DNA of 11,513 bases, from positions 1 through 11,513 of the forward strand of contig NZ_JAAHGK010000067.1 in the NCBI RefSeq assembly GCF_010672505.1, read 5' to 3'. Positions 1-11,513 of the stretch are shown in pieces (position 1 is the first letter of the stretch; each line of letters begins with the position of its first letter). Below the pieces are notes generated by a model, which was not told the origin of the DNA, searched no databases, and saw only the letters and a list, made by a program, of their open reading frames with translations. The position numbers were made by a program, and so were the translations under genes. The DNA is from Okeania sp. SIO2B9. GTDB lineage: Bacteria > Cyanobacteriota > Cyanobacteriia > Cyanobacteriales > Microcoleaceae.

Positions 1-90
1 TGGATAGTTGGGATAAATGGTAATCCTTTAGCAGGTGTAATGGGGTGGTTTTTTTTAGGAGCGATCGCTTTGTTTATTCAGCGAAAGTGA
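1..90 (+). CDS. 3' end of a gene running into the window (C-terminal 29 codons, hydrophobic); partial
   Basis: Frame 1 is open from base 1 to TGA at 88-90 and reads WIVGINGNPLAGVMGWFFLGAIALFIQRK*. The hydrophobic tail looks like the end of a membrane protein. There is no start in the window. Confidence 0.2.
   Translation, partial: WIVGINGNPLAGVMGWFFLGAIALFIQRK
61..68. repeat. HIP1 octamer GCGATCGC (one of at least 8 copies)
   Basis: Exact GCGATCGC occurs here and at about 1543, 5936, 6339, 7921, 8861 and 9487. Its over-representation is a hallmark of many cyanobacterial genomes. Confidence 0.7.
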
Positions 91-150
91 ATTGGTATAA
101 CCTAAGAGGTAGTTATATCATGTCTGGATAATAGACATCTCCAGAAAAGA

Positions 151-177
151 GGGAGTAGGCAGTAGGCAGTAGGGAGG
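151..177. repeat. STRR-like heptanucleotide tandem array (GGGAGTA GGCAGTA GGCAGTA GGGAGG)
   Basis: Direct read: four consecutive 7-mers of the form GGSAGTA. It is preceded by the motif AATAGACATCTCCAGAAAAGAG, which recurs at 8612-8641. Confidence 0.8.
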
Positions 178-181
178 TTGC

Positions 182-379
182 ATGCAACGTCCCTACAGAG
201 AAATAATTGATAATTTCTGTGTGATAATTGATTTTATTTTTGATTTTTACCAGATGTCTAATAGCATTCTGATTCAATATCAAGATGAATTAGCTATTGG
301 AGACCAAGCTATTACTGCTAAGGAATGGAAGCAGTTAGTTAATGCTAAAAGTACTTTGGTGAAGTTTCGGGGGCAGTAA
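182..379 (+). CDS. Hypothetical small protein (65 aa)
   Basis: ATG is preceded by GGGAGG about 5 nt upstream, which is Shine-Dalgarno-like. I recognise no family. The ORF is convergent with the P450 gene and could be spurious. Confidence 0.25.
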   Translation: MQRPYREIIDNFCVIIDFIFDFYQMSNSILIQYQDELAIGDQAITAKEWKQLVNAKSTLVKFRGQ

Positions 380-438
380 TCTTTACAGAACAAGTTTTTT
401 GGGGAATTTTTAATTTATAAAATGACAAGTATAATATT

Positions 439-1812
439 TTAGATAGTTGCAAGGGAAGGAGATTTTTTTTGTGACTGTATACGTTTACCTTTCATCACCA
501 TTTTCACTCCACCCCTAGGACCTAAAATTATTCCTCGACGTTGGGGTTTCACAGGTTGATTTTCTGCTAATTCCATCTCTATATTAGATAATAGAGTTGC
601 CAATACTAAACGCATCTCGAAATTTGCTAGTGCCATTCCCAAACAGCGACGACTGCCACCTCCAAAGGGCAAATATTGATAGGTCGAAAACTGCCTCTCT
701 AAAAATCGCTCTGGCTTGAACTTTTTCGGTTCTGGGTACAAATCTTCTCGTTGGTGAGTCAAATAAATAGAACCCGAAATCATTGTACCTGTTTCCAAGT
801 GATAACCCTGCAACTCAACAGGTTGTTTTGTCCGACGAAGAAGTGTCGCAAATGCCACCGGATATATTCGTAGGGTTTCCTGACAAACTGCTGTCAAATA
901 GGGTAAACGGAAAATTGTCATGGGGTCCGCATCTGTTTCCATAGTTTCCAACTCTTCCATTAATTTCTGATATACTTGTGGTTGTTTGTGAATCCAATAA
1001 AGTGCCCAAGCAAGAGCATTTGCAGTAGTGTCGTGACCTGCAAATAACAATGTGATCAACTCATCCCGAATTTCTTGGTCTGTCATACCTTGACCTTCTT
1101 CATCTCGTGCTAATAACATTAAGGTAAGGATATCAGTACGATTCAGATCTAGTTGAGAGCGACGAGTGGCAATTTCTGTATATAGGAGTTCATTAAGTTG
1201 TTGTTGTTGACGTCGATACTTACCCCAAGGACTCCAAGGGCCTAAATCCTTTTGCAACCAGGGAAAAAATAATAAACTAGCTCGGAGTGGAGAGGCTGTA
1301 AATTCGATAAAATCTACTAACATTAACCTAATTTGTGATAACCGGGGGCTATCATATAGACCAAAAACAGCTTGGAGTATCACCTGGGTCGTAATTTCTT
1401 GCATAAGTTTAAGAGCAATAAATGGTTGACTCACTTTTAAATTGCTAGCTGTTTCTTTCGTGATGTTACAGATTAACTCACCATAGCTCCGCATTCTGTC
1501 GCCATGAAAAGGAGGCATTAATAATTTGCGTTCTCGGCGGTGGCGATCGCCTTCTAAGCCAAATATAGAGTACTCCCCAAGCATTGATTGTATAACTTTA
1601 CTAGCAGGAGTTTCATACTCATTATTATCCTTTGTCAATACCTCCTGCAAAGCTTGCGGACTGCTGACGAAGACAACTTCACCTACAGAAGTCATCATAG
1701 TAAAAATATCTCCATACTTCTTGGCATAAGATTCAAGAGTACTGAGTGGAGCGAGAACCAATTGCAGTCTCTGAAAAAGCGGTGGTGTTTTTGGTCCTTT
1801 GATTAATTTCAT
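439..1812 (-). CDS. Cytochrome P450 monooxygenase
   Basis: 457 aa. It has the heme-thiolate loop FGGGSRRCLG, I-helix AGHDTT, K-helix ETLR and the PERF motif (FKPERF). Start ATG is at 1812 and stop TAA at 439-441. Confidence 0.9.
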   Translation of the reverse strand: MKLIKGPKTPPLFQRLQLVLAPLSTLESYAKKYGDIFTMMTSVGEVVFVSSPQALQEVLTKDNNEYETPASKVIQSMLGEYSIFGLEGDRHRRERKLLMPPFHGDRMRSYGELICNITKETASNLKVSQPFIALKLMQEITTQVILQAVFGLYDSPRLSQIRLMLVDFIEFTASPLRASLLFFPWLQKDLGPWSPWGKYRRQQQQLNELLYTEIATRRSQLDLNRTDILTLMLLARDEEGQGMTDQEIRDELITLLFAGHDTTANALAWALYWIHKQPQVYQKLMEELETMETDADPMTIFRLPYLTAVCQETLRIYPVAFATLLRRTKQPVELQGYHLETGTMISGSIYLTHQREDLYPEPKKFKPERFLERQFSTYQYLPFGGGSRRCLGMALANFEMRLVLATLLSNIEMELAENQPVKPQRRGIILGPRGGVKMVMKGKRIQSQKKSPSLATI

Positions 1813-1930
1813 ATAGTTACTTGTGAATTTTTGGACTGTTTAATATTAGAAGTTAACAATAGCATTTTATCAGTTTTTTTGTCTCAAATTCAATGCCCTA
1901 GTGTTAGACAAATTTTTATGTTGGCGACTG

Positions 1931-1956
1931 CCGTTTGCGTAGCATTCTGTAGGAAA
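1931..1956. repeat. Left arm of a ~26-bp inverted repeat (CYGTTTGCGYAGCATTCYGTAGGAAA); partner at 3526-3551
   Basis: 1931-1956 ccgtttgcgtagcattctgtaggaaa. The reverse complement of 3526-3551 is ctgtttgcgcagcattccgtaggaaa, giving 23/26 identity. Confidence 0.6.
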
Positions 1957-2133
1957 ATAATTAATAATTAATTATTACTTATCTTTGGCCAAGTTCTTTA
2001 CATTGAAAAAGTTTGATCGACCAAGAGAAGAAAAAATTTTCATTATTAGTCAATCCTCTTCTTTTCAAGTAGAGGTAATTATTAATTATAGCAATTCCCA
2101 AGAAGCGTGAGGTACGCGCATTCGTTGGTTCTA

Positions 2134-2168
2134 GGGAATAGGGAACAGGGAATAGGGAATAGGAGACA
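2134..2168. repeat. STRR-like heptamer tandem array (GGGAATA/GGGAACA x5)
   Basis: Direct read: gggaata gggaaca gggaata gggaata ggagaca. Confidence 0.8.
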
Positions 2169-2438
2169 AATCAAGATAGGTGTACTTCATTAGGTTGAGA
2201 AAAGCTATATTAATTATTAATTGTTGAAAGATACCCTCTAGTAATTATTGCTCTGCTGATTAAATCTCAAAGCATTGATATATAAAGATATTAGCCTTTT
2301 TTAGCTGGAAATACCTGGTTTTGATCCCTTCACGCTCATGCATGGAGCGCATTTTGGGGTGACTATGGCAGAAAAATCACTCTTGCTATAATGAACAACC
2401 ACCTTCTCTATAACTCCCTCGTTCCTCCTGACTCTTAA

Positions 2439-2466
2439 CTACTCCCTACTCCCTACTCCCTACCTC
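2439..2466. repeat. STRR-like heptamer tandem array (CTACTCC x4)
   Basis: Direct read: ctactcc ctactcc ctactcc ctacctc. It is the reverse complement of the GGGAGTA-type unit seen at 151-177. Confidence 0.8.
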
Positions 2467-2535
2467 AACAAAAAGACTTTCCATAAGCAAACCCTAATTA
2501 GTATTAGAAGCTAGAGAGTTGAAGCGTCATAAAAT

Positions 2536-3480
2536 TCAGATATCTTGTCTATTTCTGGCATCTAAAAATTTTAATTGTTGATACAACATCCCAATTTTAT
2601 CTAGCTGAATACCTGCTGCACCTGCCATTCGTAAAGGGTTGCCAATAATACTTTCTATTTCTAAAGGTTGTCGTCGCTCATAATCAATTTTCATGCTAGT
2701 TAAATAAGGGTTTAACTTGTAAGTATGGTCTAACATATTTTGAATATAACTATTTGGAATTTCGCACTTACAACTTTTTGCACCCTCCAATACTTCTTGC
2801 ATTATTTCTGTGATTAAGTTTCTAGTATTAGTATCTCCCATCATTTCATCAGTTCGAGCATCTAGAATTACTGACAAGCTGTTATAAGGAATATTCCAAA
2901 CTAATTTTTTCCATCTTTCTTGGAATAAATCTTCACTCAAATTAACTTGTATTCCAGCACTTTCAAAATCTTGGGAAATTTCACGCATTTTATTAGTAAT
3001 ACCAGCAGGTTGATAATTTGTGGTATATTTTCCGATTCTAATCAAACCATAATCTACATGGCGAATATGACCATAACCTATTTTATTAGAAGCAATATTA
3101 GATACTCCTCCAATTACTCTTTCCTCACCAACAATTTTGGCTATTTCAGGTTCTGCACCCAATCCATTTTGTAAGAGTAAGACAACGTTATTTTCTTGGC
3201 ACAAAGGTGGGAGTAATTCTGGTAATAAATAGTTTTGCGTTGTTTTTAATGCTACGAGAATTACATCACATTTTGGCATTTTATTAGTATTGTTATAGGC
3301 GTTAATTTGAGGGAGGGTAAAGTCGCCATTTTTGGATTCTATGATTAAGCCATTTTTGAGAACGTGCTGATAATCACTACGCAGTAAAAAATGAACTTCT
3401 AATCCTGCTTTTTGTAGTTTTGCACCGTAAAAACCTCCTAGTGCGCCACTGCCAATAATCGCGTAAGTATTTTTTGACAT
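2536..3480 (-). CDS. panE: 2-dehydropantoate 2-reductase (ketopantoate reductase, PanE/ApbA family)
   Basis: 314 aa. N-terminal Rossmann motif is AIIGSGALGGFYGAKL. The length, the central LLQNGLG motif and a C-terminal helical domain are typical of the KPR family. Stop is TGA. Confidence 0.75.
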   Translation of the reverse strand: MSKNTYAIIGSGALGGFYGAKLQKAGLEVHFLLRSDYQHVLKNGLIIESKNGDFTLPQINAYNNTNKMPKCDVILVALKTTQNYLLPELLPPLCQENNVVLLLQNGLGAEPEIAKIVGEERVIGGVSNIASNKIGYGHIRHVDYGLIRIGKYTTNYQPAGITNKMREISQDFESAGIQVNLSEDLFQERWKKLVWNIPYNSLSVILDARTDEMMGDTNTRNLITEIMQEVLEGAKSCKCEIPNSYIQNMLDHTYKLNPYLTSMKIDYERRQPLEIESIIGNPLRMAGAAGIQLDKIGMLYQQLKFLDARNRQDI

Positions 3481-3525
3481 TTTATTGAACTTAAATTCGA
3501 CTCTGTTTCTATTTTATTGTAAGCA

Positions 3526-3551
3526 TTTCCTACGGAATGCTGCGCAAACAG
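3526..3551. repeat. Right arm of the inverted repeat paired with 1931-1956
   Basis: See 1931-1956. The two arms bracket panE plus two heptamer arrays, about 1.6 kb apart. Confidence 0.6.
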
Positions 3552-4151
3552 CTATTAGCTGTCAGCTCTCAACAACAAGACTCTCTCATATAGGACAGTG
3601 TTTAAATTAATATAGACTTTAAGGGCAAGGGAGCTAACTTTTGCAGTAAGACAATTAATAAAGCTTTTATGGTAAACTAAAAGCAATAGCTAATAGTTAT
3701 GACTGACCGTTGAATGCTTCAATAAAAGTTTTATTTAAACTCTATTATTAAGGGCGAAGTCTTAATTTTTTTTACTTCATATACTTGCATTTTGCTGTAT
3801 TAAACTCAACTCTATCATTATTTTATCTGTTCAAATTTTTCAACTTTAATTTTGCTACATGAATAGTCTTTCCATTATCCAGTTTAAAATTTTTCCTAAA
3901 GCAAATCCTCCTGCCAATGCTAAGAAAATATAATACAGTAGATTCCACTTTAATCAGATACACCCGTCGCTGGCAAGATGCCCGCACTAGAAACATTTAA
4001 TTGTTAATCTCTGTACTTCTTATGGGAGGAATCTGCTGTAATTTATATTTATAACTCCAGCTTAAGTTTCTAGAATGTTCTAAATAAAGAAAGATAGAAA
4101 AAAATAGCAGGCAAAAACAGTACTAAAACTAAAGTTATAGTGTTTATAAAA

Positions 4152-4240
4152 GTTATAGCAGTCGAAGGAAAGGTTAGGAGAAATAAAAAACTTAAAACTC
4201 AGACAAAGGAATATTTTTCCTTCTTCCCTCTTCCTTCTGC
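4152..4240. repeat. Copy A of a ~90-nt dispersed structured element (purine/pyrimidine-rich arms that can pair)
   Basis: TATAGCAGTCGAAGGAAAGGTTAGGAG...CAGACAAAGGAATATTTTTCCTTCTTCCCTCTTCCTTCTGC aligns at about 70% identity with 5390-5480. The 5' GAAGGAAAGG arm is complementary to the 3' CCTTCTTCC arm. It lies 28 nt 3' of the thioesterase gene (minus strand). Confidence 0.55.
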
Positions 4241-4267
4241 TATATACCAATTCCTAAAAATAATGCT

Positions 4268-4708
4268 CTACTTATATTCATTGTTAATTTTTGAATAACT
4301 AGGAAAACTCAATAACCATTTCCTCATTTCATCAGATAATTTTTGCCTACTTCTACTTTGAGGATGAATACAAACGTGCTTCGTAATAGCTCTTGCCCCC
4401 CACTTATCCTCTGTTTCTTTTAAAAAGACTTGATAGGAAATTTCAAACTCATCGTCTCTCCAACTTTTAGGAATTAATTCAATAGTTAACTCATCCCCAC
4501 AAAACATCGGGCGACGAAAATCAACATTAGCATGAATAATTGGAATAGCTATTTCTTGATTACTAAAAAAAACTTTCAGATTAATACCAAATTCTACTAA
4601 AGATGCTTCATAAGCTTCATGGCACATTGCTAAAACATTAGCAAAATAAACTACTCCAGCAGCATCGGTATCTTGAAAATGAACTATTCTTGTATAGTAA
4701 AAAGACAT
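4268..4708 (-). CDS. Hotdog-fold acyl-CoA thioesterase (4HBT family; resembles cyanobacterial 1,4-dihydroxy-2-naphthoyl-CoA hydrolase of phylloquinone synthesis)
   Basis: 146 aa. The N-terminus RIVHFQDTDAAGVVYFANVL carries the catalytic Asp in a DTDAAG context, which is typical of 4HBT-type thioesterases. Size fits the family. Confidence 0.65.
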   Translation of the reverse strand: MSFYYTRIVHFQDTDAAGVVYFANVLAMCHEAYEASLVEFGINLKVFFSNQEIAIPIIHANVDFRRPMFCGDELTIELIPKSWRDDEFEISYQVFLKETEDKWGARAITKHVCIHPQSRSRQKLSDEMRKWLLSFPSYSKINNEYK

Positions 4709-4938
4709 TTATAGATATAGGTTTAATAATAATACCATTTCTCTATGAATTTGCGCTGAATAAAAGATGATAATTATCAGAATAATAAGGTCAGGGCAAA
4801 AATTATTAAGTGCATCGTTACAAAGAAATGATATTAGATTGAATAAAGTTTTAGGTAATAGGTATTAGGTTCAATTGAAGATTAAACTTTAACCAGTTAT
4901 AGAAACCGTAAAGACAGTCATATTTTCTACACTTATAA

Positions 4939-5380
4939 CCTGACACCTACCAGGAAGGGTAGGGAGGATAAATCATATATTTAGGAATTAGGCATTTTTG
5001 AGTTCTAAACACTACATATCTGTAACGTTATAGTTTTTCTCATTATATATAGTCTGTTTACCTAAATTCGGAACTATAACGTTATAGTTTTTCTCGTTAT
5101 ATATAGTTTGTTGACCTAAATACTGATCGCCTGACAACTGCCACTCAAGGAAGGTAGGGACAATAAATCATATATTTAGGACTTAAGTATTTTTGAGTTC
5201 TAGAGACTACATATCTGTAACGTTATAGTTTTTGCTCGTGATATATAGTCTGTTGACCTAAATACTGATCGCCTGACAACTGCCACTCAAGGAAGGTAGG
5301 GACAATAAATCATATATTTAGGAATTAGGGATTTTTGAGTTCTAGAGACTACATATCTGCAACGTTATAGTTTTTGCTCA
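4939..5380 (+). repeat. Tandem array of ~143-bp units (3 full plus 1 partial), each with a TATATT box and a CTGTAACGTTATAG hairpin followed by T5; candidate tandem sRNA genes
   Basis: Units are 4939-5072, partial 5073-5129, 5130-5271 and 5272-5380. Units 2 and 3 are more than 90% identical. Hairpin plus T-run occur at 5020-5038, 5074-5092, 5215-5233 and 5357-5375. TATATT occurs at 4976, 5171 and 5313, about 40 nt upstream of each hairpin. Confidence 0.6.
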
Positions 5381-5389
5381 CCATATACA

Positions 5390-5480
5390 TAATAGTAGTC
5401 GAAGCAAAGGGCACGGACATATCAAAAGCTGAAAACTAAGACAATGCAAATTTTTTTGTCCTTCGCTCCTTCCTTCTTCC
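5390..5480. repeat. Copy B of the ~90-nt dispersed structured element
   Basis: AATAGTAGTCGAAGCAAAGGGCACGGAC...AAGACAATGCAAATTTTTTTGTCCTTCGCTCCTTCCTTCTTCC. It sits directly after the tandem array and about 80 nt 3' of the TerB-like gene (minus strand). Confidence 0.55.
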
Positions 5481-5561
5481 TTTTCTGAACAATGAACAAT
5501 CACTACAATAAAATTGAGTATTGTTCATTGAACATTCATCAGGACTAATTTTGTAATTAAA

Positions 5562-6008
5562 TTAACCCTTATTTTTAATCATTATTACATCAATAATCTT
5601 AGTCGCTACTGCTTCGGAAATTTCCAAAGCATTATATAACTCATTCAAAAGTTGTTCCTCCTCTTCAGCAAGGTCTCCATCTACTAAAACCAAGTCTGTA
5701 CTAACAGCAAAAACTGTTTCCCTTAACTCCTTTGGAAGTTTAGCAACTGCAGCATCAAACAAAGGCTTAATTTCTTGATTTTTAATCATATCGAGAAGAC
5801 GGTCTTGCATTTCTGTTTTACGTTCTTTTGGATAATCACTAAACAGTTGCATACGAGAGAAAATATTATTAATACCTTGAGATTCACTCTTAGTAATAAC
5901 ACCATCAGCAGCAACAGCAATTAAAGCGATCGCTGCAAAAGCTTCTGCCGGTTCTAATTGAATATCAGTAGCTTGTATTGTTGTTGTTCCTTGATCGAAA
6001 AGACCCAT
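5562..6008 (-). CDS. TerB-like (tellurite-resistance TerB family) domain protein
   Basis: 148 aa. It has a two-lobed acidic helical pattern, AFAAIALIAVAADGVITKSESQ ... VFAVSTDLVLVDGDLAEEEEQLL, matching the TerB fold. Compare E. coli TerB ...AVCARIAVASDGVSSEEKQ... / ...AVAKSDGNFDDDEK.... Confidence 0.6.
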   Translation of the reverse strand: MGLFDQGTTTIQATDIQLEPAEAFAAIALIAVAADGVITKSESQGINNIFSRMQLFSDYPKERKTEMQDRLLDMIKNQEIKPLFDAAVAKLPKELRETVFAVSTDLVLVDGDLAEEEEQLLNELYNALEISEAVATKIIDVIMIKNKG

Positions 6009-6122
6009 TTTAGTACCTCATTAATGATTTTTTTACCATCTCTATTTTGGAAAAATATTAGGTGTTATTAAATAAGTTTTAGATTGAATCTACAACCTAA
6101 AATTTACCACCTACTACCTTCT

Positions 6123-7478
6123 TCAATACTTCTCAAAAACTGTTAAATTAGCTTTGAGAAAATCAATAAATTGTCGTGCCGTTCGCCCAGAGCGACCATT
6201 ATATTTCGTAGCCCATTGTAAAGCTTGATAGTCTAAATCTTCAGGATTTAGATTAATTTTTGCCTGTTTTGCCAGATGTCTAACAATTGTTAAATAAGTA
6301 TCCTGGTTAGCAGGTTCAAAAGTTAAAGTTAAGCCAAAGCGATCGCTAAAAGAAAGCTTTTCTTGAACTGTATCCCAATTATGAACCTCATCACTATCTT
6401 TTGGGCGAGGGCGATCGTTAAAAAATTCTCTAATTAAATGCCTTCTATTTGATGTAGCATAGACTACCACATTTGTTGGTCTAGCAGTTAAATTACCCTC
6501 TAAAACAACTTTAAGAGCTTTAAAAGTATCATCATCTTCTTCAAAGGAAAGGTCATCGACAAAGATAATAAATTTTTGTGGAATATCGCGTAATTTTTCT
6601 ACAATTAATGGTAAATCTTTTAGGTTTGATTTAGCCACTTCGACTAAACGAAGATTGCGTTGACTATACTCATTTAATAAGGCTTTTATTAAAGAGGATT
6701 TGCCAGAACCGCGACTACCATAAAGTAATATATTAAGGGCTGAATATCCTGCTAGGAGAAATTCTGTATTTTTGATTAAGGCATCTTTTTGAAATTCATA
6801 TCCGACCAATTCTTTTAATTCAACTGGGTCAGGGTAAGTAATAGTAAGTAGTTGACCGTTACGCCATTCAAAGGCAATTGATTCAGCAAATAAACCAGTG
6901 CCATTATGATGATAATGAGTGGCTAAGGTCTCAATGGCATCTGCCCAATTTTCTAATTTTTTTAACTCGTCGTAGATAGCTTCTTTTTGTTGTGATTGTA
7001 TTTCCCACGCAATAGGGGGATTCTCTAATTTAGCTATTGTTTTTACCCACTGACTAATTGTTTTACCACTGCACTGATAAAGATTTTGTAAAATTTGTAA
7101 ATCATGTTTTGCAGCTGCAATTAAATTTGGAGATAGGCTGGTAATATTTATTTTTTGAACTTGTTGACTAAAGGGATTATCATCTTGAATAATCTGAGCA
7201 ATTAGATATTCTTGCCAGGAAATATTTTGACTAGCAATATTTATAAACCAGTTACCATAAGCTTGAAGGCATTCTATAGCAACTCCATCATTTTTAGACA
7301 AAGATTCTAATAATTGGATAAAAGCTTCACCCACTGTTTTTTTTAGAACAGACTGATATAACAATAGAGATGCTATTTGCTGTTGTAAGTTTTGAATTTT
7401 GGCTAACACTTGGGAACCTAAACAAGACATAATTAATGATATGATTGCCTTATTAAATAAAGGATCAGCACTTAGCAC
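6123..7478 (-). CDS. AAA+ ATPase of the DUF815 family
   Basis: 451 aa. Walker A is LLYGSRGSGKSS and Walker B is FIIFVDDLSFEEDD, followed by VVYATSNRRHL, the characteristic DUF815 signature. Stop is TGA. Confidence 0.75.
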   Translation of the reverse strand: MLSADPLFNKAIISLIMSCLGSQVLAKIQNLQQQIASLLLYQSVLKKTVGEAFIQLLESLSKNDGVAIECLQAYGNWFINIASQNISWQEYLIAQIIQDDNPFSQQVQKINITSLSPNLIAAAKHDLQILQNLYQCSGKTISQWVKTIAKLENPPIAWEIQSQQKEAIYDELKKLENWADAIETLATHYHHNGTGLFAESIAFEWRNGQLLTITYPDPVELKELVGYEFQKDALIKNTEFLLAGYSALNILLYGSRGSGKSSLIKALLNEYSQRNLRLVEVAKSNLKDLPLIVEKLRDIPQKFIIFVDDLSFEEDDDTFKALKVVLEGNLTARPTNVVVYATSNRRHLIREFFNDRPRPKDSDEVHNWDTVQEKLSFSDRFGLTLTFEPANQDTYLTIVRHLAKQAKINLNPEDLDYQALQWATKYNGRSGRTARQFIDFLKANLTVFEKY

Positions 7479-7893
7479 TCAGCAATTAGTAGGAGCATTT
7501 TTTTTAGGTTTATAAGGGGATTTCAACTCCTACTAAACTATCTGAAACAATATTTGTTAGAGATTTTAACCCAAACTCAAAAAACTTTATAATAGCTGAT
7601 AGCTTACCACTGGATACTTACCTATTTCTTTGGCGTAATGTAAATCTATGTAATTCTATAATAAATTTTACTCTTTGTAGTTATAAACCACTATTTTTTT
7701 ACATTTACTTAAGATGCAATTTAAGATCGAGAAATATTTCAAAAAATGTTATTGAATAGTTGAAAATTTCATTTTTAATCATAGTTTAATAATTATTGAA
7801 TCTTGATTAAGCAATATTAAGTTTTGATAAATTGGCTAGCTATTGCCACAAATAAGCTGTATAAGTTAGTTTTAGTTTTAGGAGTTAATAATA

Positions 7894-8232
7894 ATGACTA
7901 TAAATATCGCCATAATAGCAGCGATCGCCTATGGTATATTAGCCATTGTTGGGGGCATTATTGGATATACGAAAGTAGGCAGCAAAATATCTTTAATATC
8001 TGGTAGTATCAGTGGTTTACTACTAATTGTTAGTGGAATTATTCAACTAATGGGCATGAATTGGGGTCTAATATTTTCTACCCTCATTACAACTATTCTA
8101 GTAATTACATTCATTATTCGTTTAGCAAAAACTCGTAAAATGATGCCTGCGGGATTAATGATTTTAACTGGAGTTGCTGCTGTAGCAGTTATGGTTTATG
8201 AAATTACCATAAACAATTCAGCCACAATTTAA
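7894..8232 (+). CDS. TMEM14-family small membrane protein (4 TM helices)
   Basis: 112 aa. It has the YGILAIVGGIIGYTKVGSKISLISG motif typical of the TMEM14/UPF0136 family. TAGGAG Shine-Dalgarno lies 9 nt upstream of ATG. Confidence 0.6.
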   Translation: MTINIAIIAAIAYGILAIVGGIIGYTKVGSKISLISGSISGLLLIVSGIIQLMGMNWGLIFSTLITTILVITFIIRLAKTRKMMPAGLMILTGVAAVAVMVYEITINNSATI

Positions 8233-8492
8233 AAAGAAACGTAAGTATTTAGCCGTCAGCTTTCAGCTCCATTAGAACTAATGACTATAGCCTTTAAAGC
8301 AGAAGTTACCATTGACAGATTTTATCTAATTAAAAATATGAATTAAAAGTTTCCCTAGTAACTTCTAAAGTCTTAAAAAATGCTTACTTCATTTATTAAT
8401 CAAGATGAGAGCTGACCACTAATCACTGTTTGTGGAGCATTCAGGCACGGAAATCCTTATACCAATTTCATAAACTTGAGCTACTTAGGTTT

Positions 8493-8527
8493 GGAGTAGT
8501 CAGTAGTCAGTAGTCAGTAGTCAGGAG
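8493..8527. repeat. STRR-like heptamer tandem array (AGTAGTC x4-5)
   Basis: Direct read: ggagtag tcagtag tcagtag tcagtag tcaggag. Confidence 0.8.
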
Positions 8528-8552
8528 GTAAGGTGAGTAGCCTTACTTTTTG
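8527..8552 (+). terminator. Rho-independent terminator-like hairpin
   Basis: Stem GTAAGG (8528-8533), loop TGAGTAG, stem CCTTAC (8541-8546), then TTTTT (8547-8551). It lies in the convergent gap between the TMEM14 gene and the MVP pseudogene. Confidence 0.5.
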
Positions 8553-8684
8553 AATTTGGTATTACAAAGAAACAAAGAATATGGAAGAGATAAAAAAGTA
8601 GAAACTTGCTCAATAGACATATAGATATCTCCAGAAAAGAGATAACAGGTAACAGGAAGAAATAATAGAAATCATCAATTATTT

Positions 8685-8736
8685 CTCCCTACTCCCCTAC
8701 TCCCCTACTCCCTGCTCCCTACTCCCTACTCCCTAA
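8685..8736. repeat. STRR-like 7/8-mer tandem array (CTCCCT ACTCCCCT ACTCCCCT ACTCCCT GCTCCCT ACTCCCT ACTCCCT)
   Basis: Direct read. It overlaps the last codons and the stop of the MVP-like reading frame. Confidence 0.8.
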
Positions 8737-10481
8737 ATTGGGATTAATCAACCCATTAGCCGTACCAAAAAGATTAATTGGACTCTTACCATCAGTAATT
8801 AAAACACTCTGAAGACCAAGCCCCTACAACAACCTCGCCTGCATTTATGGGCCAGCTTGAGCGATCGCCCGAATTGTCTCAGCCCCCAAAGCCTCCACTT
8901 TTTGCTGAAACTCAGTAGCAGTAATTTCAGCCATTTGCCTTGCCTTCTCAATCTCTAAATTATTCAGTGTCTGCTGATGGGCTAACTCAGTCTCCTGACG
9001 CGCCCTCAACTGAGCCATCTCAGCCTCATGGCGAATCCGTGCTGCTTCTACTTCCTGCTGCGCCAAATTCACCGCCAACTGGCCTTGAAAAGGAGATAAC
9101 ATATAAGCTTGAGGTCCATTGACTAATTTTAGTTCCCCACTTTGAACATCCCGTACATATATACCTTCATTTTTGTCTAGGGGAATAGCCTGAAGTTTTT
9201 CTAATACTTCTAATTCCACTGGGGGAATATAATCTCTTGGCCCAGTAATCATCCATAAATCTCCTGGTTGCCGAGTAATAACGTTTGCTCCTGTTCCCTC
9301 GGTGAAAGTTTCCTCAACTCTGATTAGGAGTGCTTCTTGTTCACCAAGAATATAGACCTTTTTAATTCCTGTTTCTAAATCTTCTCCTGGGTGCAAAAAG
9401 AAAGATGTTCTGCCCTGACGCACTTCTTTCATACCCCACTGCGGTTTACCATCTGCATCTATGGGATTAGTTACTATGCACCATTCGCGATCGCTTAAAG
9501 TAGTGATTTTGACTTCTCCCACTACTTCTTCATAAACGTCGGGAATATGAATTTCAGCATCTGCAAAAGTAACTAACTATTCATATCCCGCTTTGCGTTG
9601 CTGACCAAAAATATCAGTAAAAGTCCGTTTTGCTTTTAGATGTAGTGCTTGACGTTCGGTTAATACATAGGCATCAATAGTATCGACAATTTCTTCATCT
9701 ACTCCAGGCAAATAAGCACCTTCTTCCCTGACCAACCATTATTCCCCAGTTCTACGTCTGTTACCTTGACGATCTATACAATTTTGTCGTGCCAGCAGTC
9801 GTAAGGCTTGGTTAGGTTTAATTATTTTAGCTATAACTGTGACTACCACTTCAACTTCTACCCTGGGAGTGTAAGTTCCTGGCCCCTCAAATAACCATTC
9901 ATCCCCTGTCGTACGAGTGACAGTTTGAGACTCTCCTGCAACGATAACTGTATCAGTAAAATCTCGTATTGCTTTGAGACGTAGAGTTTGGTTTGTGTCA
10001 ATTACTTGTAGTTGAGTTACATCTTCTTCGAGTATTTCTCCTGGATATAGTGGGAAAGGGTCTTGAGCAAAGCGAATTTCCAGATCGCCATATTTGAGTC
10101 TAATTTAACCATACTCATCGGCCACAAGTTGATCTGAACTATAGCAATGTGCGCTGGCATATTTACACATTATTTTTTGTACACCTTTTCTAAAATGCAC
10201 TTTGAACTGGGCCTTGTAAATACCTGAGCGCTCATTGCTATATTTCTTAGTACAGGGTTAGCTGCTACACAATAATGGCGAGGTGGAACTACAATTGTCA
10301 GTTGTGGTTGTCAGACTAACCTTTCTGCATCTCCAAGGGTAATGGTTTGAGGGCCTATTTCTAGTCTGATAACACCAGTGTTATTGTCAAGAACATGAAT
10401 ATACTGTTGTGGCTTCAGGAGAATTATACCATTGTTCTCTATTGTAATTGGATATTCTGTGGTACTTTTTATTTTACTCAT
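8719..10481 (-). pseudogene. Major vault protein (MVP) homolog, disrupted by a MITE insertion and multiple in-frame stop codons
   Basis: Translation of the minus strand from ATG 10481 gives MSKIKSTTEYPITIENNGIILLKPQQYIHVLDNN... (human MVP ...PPYHYIHVLDQN...). Further on it reads ...[21 protein letters not shown]..., ...[22 protein letters not shown]..., ...SFFLHPGEDLETGIKKVYILGEQEALLIR..., ...QAIPLDKNEGIYVRDVQSGELKLV... and a cap-helix C-terminus ...[49 protein letters not shown]. All of these align residue-for-residue with vertebrate MVP. In-frame stops are TGA 10311-10313, TAA 10105-10107 (at the Q of GQVRL), TAA 9739-9741 (E of TGEEWLV), TAG 9577-9579 (W of GEEWLVT), TAA 8845-8847 (E of AGPEMQ) and TAG 8824-8826 (Q of LLQSL). 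A frame shift is caused by the 101-bp insertion at 10141-10241. The ORF-track entry 8845..9522 is only the largest intact fragment. Confidence 0.85.
10142..10240. mobile_element. 99-bp MITE-like insertion with ~15-bp terminal inverted repeats (TAGCAATGWGCGCT) and an apparent TA target-site duplication
   Basis: The left end is tagcaatgtgcgct. The reverse complement of the right end is tagcaatgagcgct, so 13/14 positions match. It is flanked by ta (10140-10141) and ta (10241-10242). The core is AT-rich and non-coding. Removing 101 bp (element plus one TA) rejoins ...HYCVAANPVLRN|SSDQLVADEYGQIRL... This is colinear with human ...[27 protein letters not shown]... with no gap and no frameshift. Confidence 0.6.
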
Positions 10482-10544
10482 AGTTTAATAGTTTTGTAAC
10501 TAGAAATCTTAAGTTATTCATTATCCATTATTAATTATCTCTTA

Positions 10545-11513
10545 CTATCGTCGCCAAATTTTAATAGTTCTGTCTTTACTACCACTAGCAATACTATTAC
10601 CATCAGGACTAAAAGTAACTGTATAAATCTCATCTTTATGCCCGGTCAAAGTACTAACTAATTCTCCTGTTTCTAAATCCCATATCTTAATATTATTATC
10701 CTTACTGCCACTAGCAATATATCGACCATCTTCGCTAATATCAACAGATACAACTTCAGCAGTATGACCAAGAATAGTTTTGATTAATTCTCCTGTTTTT
10801 AAGCTCCAAATTTTAATAGTATTATCGTAACTCCCACTCACTATTTTTTCCCCATCTGGACTAATATCAACAGACCTAATTACTCCTTCATGTCCAGTCA
10901 ATGTATTAATTAATTCTCCAGTATATAAATCTTCAATTTTTATAGTTTGATCTGCACTACCACTAACCAATATTCTGACGTCAGGACTAATAGCAATAGA
11001 ATAAACTACATCTGAGTGATCGGGGAAATTAAAAATTAAGAAACCTGTTTCTAAATCCCAAACTTTAACTGTTTTATCTCCACTAGCACTAGCAATTGTT
11101 TGATTATCAGAACTCATAGCAACTGACCAAACAGGTGCCCAATGTTCAAATACTCGAAATAATTCTCCTGTTTCCAAATTCCAGATCATTACTCTCCAAT
11201 CATAAGTACCTACCACTAATTTAGTACCATTATTATTCAAAGCAACTGACCAAATTGGAGAATCATCTGCAGCTAATGTGTTGATAATTTTTCCTGTAGG
11301 AACTTCTAAAATTTTTACCGTTGTGTCTCTACTTCCAGTAACTAAAGTTTTGCCATTAGAACTAAATGCAAGAGTACCTATAGAAGAATTAAACCTAGAC
11401 AAATCTTCAACTTGATAATTCTGCCAATTTAGACCTTGTTGACAATTTTGTAAAAGAGATTGAGCTTCAGCAAAAATGCTAGATTTTTCACTAATTAAAG
11501 TTCCTTGATTGAT
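10545..11513 (-). CDS. WD40-repeat protein (5' end beyond the window; at least 7 WD repeats present)
   Basis: Repeated GH...SV.FSPDG..IASGS.D.TIKIWDL units with WD/W-dipeptide ends. The frame stays open from 11402 to the window edge at 11513, so the 'M' at 11402 in the ORF track is an internal TTG. Stop is TAG at 10545-10547. Confidence 0.85.
   Translation of the reverse strand: MNQGTLISEKSSIFAEAQSLLQNCQQGLNWQNYQVEDLSRFNSSIGTLAFSSNGKTLVTGSRDTTVKILEVPTGKIINTLAADDSPIWSVALNNNGTKLVVGTYDWRVMIWNLETGELFRVFEHWAPVWSVAMSSDNQTIASASGDKTVKVWDLETGFLIFNFPDHSDVVYSIAISPDVRILVSGSADQTIKIEDLYTGELINTLTGHEGVIRSVDISPDGEKIVSGSYDNTIKIWSLKTGELIKTILGHTAEVVSVDISEDGRYIASGSKDNNIKIWDLETGELVSTLTGHKDEIYTVTFSPDGNSIASGSKDRTIKIWRR

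Follow-up and report, generated by a model that had tools for sequence, protein, structure and literature searches.

The remnant of a major vault protein gene in the cyanobacterium Okeania hirsuta and its probable decay in place

The major vault protein (MVP) of eukaryotes forms the 78-mer shell of the vault particle, and its shoulder and cap-helix domains are implicated in lateral packing and oligomerisation of that shell. We report here on a stretch of 11,513 nucleotides from Okeania sp. SIO2B9 (contig NZ_JAAHGK010000067.1, positions 1 to 11,513; referred to as the window), where MVP-like sequence is present on the minus strand at 8719-10481. The host is a cyanobacterium, as an earlier note on this DNA had it, and belongs to Okeania hirsuta. 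Our data suggest that the MVP-like locus is very probably a unitary pseudogene, i.e. the non-functional remnant, still in place, of the Okeania MVP orthologue.

The cyanobacterial MVP family is already known and is common in filamentous cyanobacteria. Daly et al. (2013) described MVP homologues in Lyngbya, Oscillatoria and Microcoleus and proposed that cyanobacteria received the gene from a eukaryote and that it then spread among them (PMC3762200); Sokolskyi (2019) proposed the opposite direction, from cyanobacteria to eukaryotes, and pointed out that gliding motility is commonly shared by bacteria with MVP (bioRxiv 10.1101/872010). Phage MVP homologues are described in a 2023 preprint (10.1101/2023.11.10.566534). 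The literature searched contained no experiment on a bacterial vault or on a cyanobacterial MVP, and the statement in the earlier note that the bacterial family is functionally uncharacterised stands. The note had also suggested transfer between domains; nothing at the present locus bears on this hypothesis, which was already published in the 2013 and 2019 studies.

The search for homologues gave 2230 proteins with E<=1e-10, and a collection with one genome per species held 63 MVP loci; to call bacterial MVP homologues rare was therefore an overstatement. The best 120 of the 2230 homologues are intact, 860-932 aa long and carry all five MVP Pfam domains, and those among these 120 for which a source is named are almost all cyanobacterial. 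These are named "colicin uptake protein" at NCBI and "major vault protein" at JGI. The cyanobacterial MVPs of Moorena producens/Lyngbya majuscula (F4Y3B4), Allocoleopsis franciscana (K9WB38) and Oscillatoria acuminata (K9TKX8) belong to the same family and lineage as the Okeania remnant and share with it the N-terminal repeat order and the C-terminal cap-ring motif. However, they are intact open reading frames (ORFs) of 860-930 aa with Vault_3 and MVP_shoulder, while the remnant is without 316 codons, has six stops and carries a miniature inverted-repeat transposable element (MITE).

MVP homology and lesions at 8719-10481

The minus-strand pieces of 8719-10481 were joined, with stops masked, into a conceptual protein of 551 residues, which matched rat MVP (7pkz_A) with an E-value of 6.8e-158 (phmmer, PDB sequences). 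The alignment consists of two blocks: query residues 17-428 correspond to MVP 5-410 (53.5% identity over 404 aligned residues) and query residues 429-544 to MVP 735-850 (45.7% over 116 residues), values close to the 45-50% identity claimed before. The Pfam scan of the conceptual protein gave matches to Vault (E 9.9e-61, four stretches), Vault_2 (1.2e-33) and Vault_4 (4.2e-08; a partial match to profile positions 1-30 of 63, i.e. the first half), and by these repeat domains the remnant belongs with MVP. The similarity is strong and, as judged by these comparisons, genuine; a low-complexity effect is ruled out.

The same scan gave no match to Vault_3 or MVP_shoulder (PF11978) in the conceptual protein. 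MVP residues ~411-734 (~325 residues) are without counterpart in the remnant, and the alignment thus does not run along the entire length of MVP as had been stated. Since the first rat MVP block ends at residue 410, the array falls short of nine repeats including R9 (Vault_3); the shoulder sits inside a 948-nt deletion; and of the cap-helix and cap-ring only the equivalent of rat MVP 735-850 is left, interrupted by two stops. According to the domain limits in the rat structure, the shoulder reportedly spans residues 520-646 and the cap-helix 647-802 (as Tanaka et al. in 2009 are said to have defined them), and we assign the absent residues ~411-734 to R8 (in part), R9, the shoulder and the cap-helix (in part). 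Given the role of the shoulder and cap-helix in packing, even a read-through product of the remnant should be unable to form a shell. Homology to eukaryotic MVP (rat/human; PDB 4V60, 7PKZ, 4HL8) is clear in both retained blocks, but in contrast to these proteins the Okeania copy is untranslatable, besides having lost the middle part. Neither Rfam (gathering thresholds) nor ARAGORN gave any RNA feature in the window, vault RNA included; no other look for vault RNA, vPARP or TEP1 was made.

Base-level alignment placed the lesions relative to two intact genes, those encoding P0001 (metagenome-assembled genome, MAG, GCA_029976225.1) and P0002 (Okeania sp. SIO3I5). In the following list, L070 refers to the copy in GCA_010692685.1, which is 99.3% identical to that in the window.

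8719..10481, minus strand: MVP pseudogene (very probable), from the ancestral ATG at 10481 to the ancestral stop at 8721-8719; ~550 of the ~870-926 codons of intact orthologues
10311..10313, minus strand: nonsense change TTA(Leu57)>TGA; missing from L070, late lesion
10140..10242, no strand assigned: MITE of 99 bp (10142-10240) plus flanking duplicated TA, terminal inverted repeats TAGCAATGAGCGCT.../...AGCGCACATTGCTA
10105..10107, minus strand: nonsense change CAA(Gln)>TAA; common to L070
9739..9741, minus strand: nonsense change GAA(Glu)>TAA; common to L070
9577..9579, minus strand: nonsense change TGG(Trp)>TAG; common to L070
9375..9376, minus strand: junction at which 165 nt (55 codons) of the intact Okeania genes are not present (DNA alignment)
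9089..9090, minus strand: junction of the 948-nt (316-codon, in-frame) deletion, corresponding to nt 1457-2404 of the SIO3I5 gene (DNA alignment)
8845..8847, minus strand: nonsense change GAA(Glu)>TAA; missing from L070, late lesion
8824..8826, minus strand: nonsense change GAG(Glu)>TAG; common to L070
8845..9522, minus strand: longest residual ORF, 225 aa, GTG start, spanning the deletion junction; RefSeq WP_240038893.1, "hypothetical protein [Okeania]"
8685..8735, no strand assigned: heptanucleotide tandem repeat (CTCCCTA)n, which gives the last codons (...GSRE*) and the 3' flank of the remnant

The six in-frame stops are one TGA, three TAA and two TAG. Instead of one uninterrupted ORF of ~850-930 codons, the minus strand of 8719-10481 holds ORF fragments of 56, 52, 225 and 50 aa in two frames, and the three-frame translation gives a single MVP-like reading, which begins with the ATG at 10481 and shifts to another frame across 10143-10243. 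The 948-nt deletion, which amounts to about one third of the gene, has taken the second half of Vault_4, Vault_3, the whole of MVP_shoulder and the N-terminal part of the cap-helix, more than half of which is gone. These domains are retained in P0002 (MVP_shoulder at 597-714, E 9.8e-54; Vault_3, E 6.2e-33), which aligns with rat MVP as far as residue ~849. The claim that the strand encodes a protein therefore fails: the longest ORF is 225 aa, and six in-frame stops and a frame change lie in the way. Two of the conserved blocks quoted in the earlier note are present in the three-frame translation, but the block given there as ...AQAGPEMQARLLQGLGL really reads AQAGP*MQARLL*GLGL (asterisks denote stops), two stops having silently been turned into E and Q. 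Hence, the family assignment of an MVP homologue in a cyanobacterium holds while its status as a gene does not.

The remaining codons are strongly conserved (53.5% identity to rat MVP and 85-88% to the intact Okeania proteins), as would be expected if the gene were intact and functional and the stops and the frame change were due to sequencing errors, programmed recoding or an alternative genetic code. The DNA alignment has already refuted this reading, to which we assign next to no probability. All three stop codons occur among the six stops, such that no single reassignment restores the frame, and the neighbouring genes are long ORFs in the standard code; an alternative genetic code or read-through was on this ground ruled out. 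Moreover, the frame is shifted by a 101-nt MITE insertion, 316 codons are physically gone, among them all of the shoulder domain, and the lesions are identical across several independent assemblies. Specifically, GCA_010672745.1 and GCA_010672625.1 each hold a copy of the pseudogene with 100% identity over 1821 nt, the identical 225-aa ORF together with the MITE is present in GCA_003838225.1 (Okeania hirsuta; L001, 99.8% identical to window 5469-11513), and the 225-aa ORF was found on six contigs. This recurrence rules out an assembly error.

The 165-nt segment differs in kind from the large deletion. In P0001 and P0002 it represents a partial internal duplication of the ...KEVRQG(R/K)TSFF... 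motif, seen in these intact Okeania MVPs as an insertion of 55 residues at ~346-400 (L003, the SIO3I5 locus, nt 11006-11170). The insertion is absent from other cyanobacterial MVPs as well as from the window remnant, so the difference may be either a gain in P0001/P0002 or a loss in the window copy. The intact P0001 gene ends in the same (CTCCCTA)n-derived tail, GSRE*, as the remnant. Short intergenic heptanucleotide tandem repeats are also seen elsewhere in the window; including that at the end of the remnant they lie at 150-173, 2132-2163, 2439-2463, 8495-8524 and 8685-8735 (e.g. AGTAGTC x4.3 and CTCCCTA x7).

Gene order and ancestry of the locus

The remnant lies between genes that also flank the intact gene of a relative. 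The syntenic markers and the genes beyond them are the following.

10545..11513, minus strand: 3' part of the upstream Ser/Thr-kinase-WD40 gene (792 aa in L001), syntenic marker
7894..8232, plus strand: downstream Tmemb_14 gene, syntenic marker
6123-7478, minus strand: DUF815 gene, beyond the Tmemb_14 gene
5562-6008, minus strand: TerB gene, after DUF815
4268-4708: 4HBT gene, after TerB

The order kinase-WD40, MVP, Tmemb_14 (on the opposite strand), DUF815, TerB and 4HBT is the same in the window and in Okeania sp. SIO3I5, where the MVP gene at the syntenic position is intact and encodes P0002 (926 aa). Because of this shared order we consider the window copy to be the positional orthologue of the intact gene. 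The nearest intact proteins are P0001 and P0002, with 88% and 85% identity, respectively, over aligned columns. Set against an intact orthologue at the syntenic position, the window copy carries disabling mutations, as a unitary pseudogene does; as judged by sequence and gene order, it is a cyanobacterial orthologue that was inherited vertically and became a pseudogene in place. Since the intact P0002 is homologous from end to end with the rat shell protein, we infer as the best interpretation that Okeania ancestrally had a full-length MVP that formed a shell.

The base composition of the remnant could be taken to mean that it arrived recently from a eukaryote or some distant bacterium, or represents contamination, and never was a working Okeania gene: its GC content is 0.415 compared with 0.337 for its surroundings, and its GC3 is 0.24-0.36 compared with 0.16-0.25 for most neighbours. 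However, the intact SIO3I5 gene (L003 10001-12781) has the same offset (GC 0.438 vs ~0.31 for its neighbours), which makes the offset a property of the gene in this clade, and a neighbouring P450 gene is comparably GC-rich (0.405). GC content as a signal of transfer was consequently set aside as not decisive. In addition, the closest relatives of the remnant are cyanobacterial (72-88% identity over retained codons, as against ~46-54% to rat MVP), synteny is kept across Okeania and Dapis and in part in the more distant MAGs L063, L035 and L039, and the flanking host genes are contiguous with the locus on contigs of 50-260 kb. MVP is thus present at the same position in other Okeania and Dapis genomes, the opposite of what an import predicts, and we hold this origin to be highly improbable. 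The GC content of MVP climbs to 0.53 towards the 3' coiled-coil region; the offset as such may be due to amino-acid composition or to an earlier transfer between cyanobacteria.

Decay in Okeania hirsuta and its relatives

The copy in L070, which was reached via a 232-aa variant of the residual ORF, has the deletion and four stops in common with the window but has neither the 101-nt insert nor the stops at 10312 (TGA) and 8847 (TAA). The decay has therefore been stepwise, with the deletion and four stops preceding the MITE and two stops.

The insert is a MITE with a TA target duplication. Small non-autonomous elements of this kind are usually mobilised by transposases of the IS630/Tc1-mariner type. 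The net insertion of 101 nt (window 10143-10243 in the DNA alignment) shifts the MVP reading frame; the filled site reads AAGAAA-TA-[TAGCAATGAGCGCT...AGCGCACATTGCTA]-TA-GTTCAG, and the empty site AAGAAA-TA-GTTCAG, or its equivalent, is present in L070, in Dapis and in the intact genes. The arms of the element are ~30 nt long and 81% complementary. While the MVP loci compared here held no copy outside this site, a pattern scan of metagenome contigs gave 13 further copies (99-103 bp) on 13 contigs, representing 10 distinct sites, all 13 with the same termini and TA flanks. The insert thus resembles described TA-duplicating MITEs in its inverted termini, TA duplication, small size without coding capacity, dispersed copies and the empty site in a relative, but unlike the named ones it was matched to no MITE family and no partner transposase. 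An inverted repeat at 2073-2404 of the window has superficially MITE-like ends (TATAGCAA...TTGCTATA), yet it represents a different element.

Between the window copy and L070 there are 12 differences: two synonymous, eight missense and two nonsense. That 10 of the 12 are non-synonymous has a probability of P=0.0087 at an omega of 0.25, roughly the long-term value for the family, and of P=0.45 at an omega of 1. In this small sample of substitutions the pattern is the neutral one of a unitary pseudogene, and since its split from L070 the remnant looks to have evolved neutrally. The window copy carries the same double change, GTC ACC > GTT ATC, at 10368-10373 and at 9943-9948 relative to L070 and outgroups, such that four of the ~9 changes in the window lineage are C>T within the hexamer GTCACC; motif-directed deamination or chance could account for these.

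These substitutions also bear on whether a residual ORF might be expressed as a truncated "mini-MVP" with a new function. The most evident candidate would be the 225-aa ORF at 8845-9522, in which the equivalents of R6-R8 (rat MVP ~265-410) are joined to a piece of the cap-helix; the 948-nt deletion within it is in-frame, and the ORF is 100% conserved in three assemblies and annotated as a protein in RefSeq. However, an in-frame deletion is expected by chance in one case out of three, and the 100% identity concerns very close strains and is no sign of constraint. The ORF starts at an internal GTG with an in-frame stop 55 nt upstream, its end varies among close strains (225 vs 232 aa) owing to a new internal stop, and most changes in the remnant after the strains diverged are non-synonymous. 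We therefore regard a mini-MVP as improbable, if somewhat less so than a recent import, and the remnant is presumably neither expressed nor functional. Annotation pipelines list such fragments as separate hypothetical proteins (WP_240038893.1), where a single pseudogene flag is due.

Some observations speak against a unitary pseudogene or lend it little support. An intact second MVP gene in O. hirsuta is possible; none was named among the best 120 of the 2230 homologues, the whole genome not having been scanned. The test for neutral drift is based on no more than 12 substitutions. Finally, dN/dS between the remnant and the intact genes is 0.15-0.20 (dS ~0.4) and thus not above that of the intact pair (0.27). 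This low pairwise value implies that most of the divergence accumulated under selection and that the death of the gene was recent relative to a dS of ~0.4; it fits a young pseudogene while giving it no independent support. Pairwise dN/dS, not being raised, is uninformative as a test of relaxation for a young pseudogene, and the window-L070 comparison was used in its place.

With a unitary pseudogene still the preferred reading, the history of the locus would be as follows. The common ancestor of Okeania and Dapis would have had an intact MVP gene of ~900 codons between the Ser/Thr-kinase-WD40 and Tmemb_14 genes. In a first phase, the O. hirsuta lineage would have acquired the 948-nt deletion and four nonsense mutations, in whatever order, and later one more TGA, one more TAA and the frameshifting MITE. 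At present the remnant would be evolving neutrally and no vault shell protein would be made from it. The decay is dated by this nesting of lesions among Okeania strains.

The check for an intact copy in close relatives, as proposed with the earlier note, gave a mixed answer: one relative (SIO3I5) is intact, several share the dead copy and two others are independently broken. Dapis sp. BLCC M229 (L066 9993-11335) has the same synteny and an MVP pseudogene with different lesions, i.e. a changed start (ATG>ATC), an out-of-frame deletion of 1438 nt (gene nt 665-2102) and a 4-nt insertion; it carries no MITE and, within the retained parts, none of the stops seen in the window. The gene in Okeania sp. 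SIO2F4 (L065 237-2557) is interrupted by a stop at codon 9 and has lost 1 nt at gene nt 400, and past codon ~369 it abuts mobile DNA, namely an RVT_1 reverse-transcriptase ORF (E 9.9e-31) running on into an ORF whose TNB (TnpB-type) domain is Cas12f1-like (E 2.4e-22); Rfam gave no match to a group II intron RNA in L065. As L065 and several other relatives are MAGs, individual small lesions in them are to be read with caution. MVP is intact in SIO3I5 and in the MAG GCA_029976225.1. From the differing lesions there are at least three separate MVP inactivations in the clade: in the O. hirsuta group, in SIO2F4 and in Dapis sp. BLCC M229.

We lean, by a narrow margin, towards the view that MVP is dispensable in the marine Okeania/Dapis clade and has been lost there repeatedly, beside sister strains in which it is intact. 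If so, these strains are natural knock-outs with matched intact relatives that could help to reveal the role of vault proteins in bacteria, and the separate decay of the gene in neighbouring lineages would mean that it is expendable there, which constrains ideas on the function of bacterial MVP. By itself the locus matters little. The "vault protein in a cyanobacterium" is here a dead gene of a family already reported in cyanobacteria, and the present data correct a likely over-reading; its modest value is comparative, in providing pairs of intact and dead strains for experiments.

Neighbours and minor features

Conserved partners of MVP were searched for by tblastn of the window neighbours against the 63 MVP loci, which gave only local synteny, in Okeania/Dapis and three MAGs. 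With conserved neighbours limited to local synteny, the genomic context suggests no function for MVP. When the flanking ORFs were clustered, the commonest neighbour, at 19 of the 63 loci, was a heterogeneous set of large signal-transduction proteins, probably an artificial cluster produced by single linkage on promiscuous domains. Two of the neighbours, the DUF815 AAA-type ATPase (451 aa) and the small protein of the TerB family (148 aa), lie side by side as a conserved pair (window 5562-7478, minus strand), which is also located downstream of MVP in Okeania SIO3I5, in Dapis and in the MAGs L063 and L035.

MVP homologues with 62-76% identity to the Okeania type are present in the MAGs L046, L061, L042, L062 and L064. 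These are labelled Candidatus Parabeggiatoa, Thiomargarita, Anaerolineae/Anaerolineales and Thermoflexales, that is, other large or filamentous bacteria, with the bins taken as labelled.

The window segments 145-444, 1998-2486 and 4743-5468 are missing or replaced in the O. hirsuta contig L001, whereas the sequences are elsewhere 99.5-100% identical. These three differences point to rapid turnover of indels and repeats among strains; the last of the segments holds a 142-bp tandem repeat (5077-5379, 2.1 copies, 95% matches).

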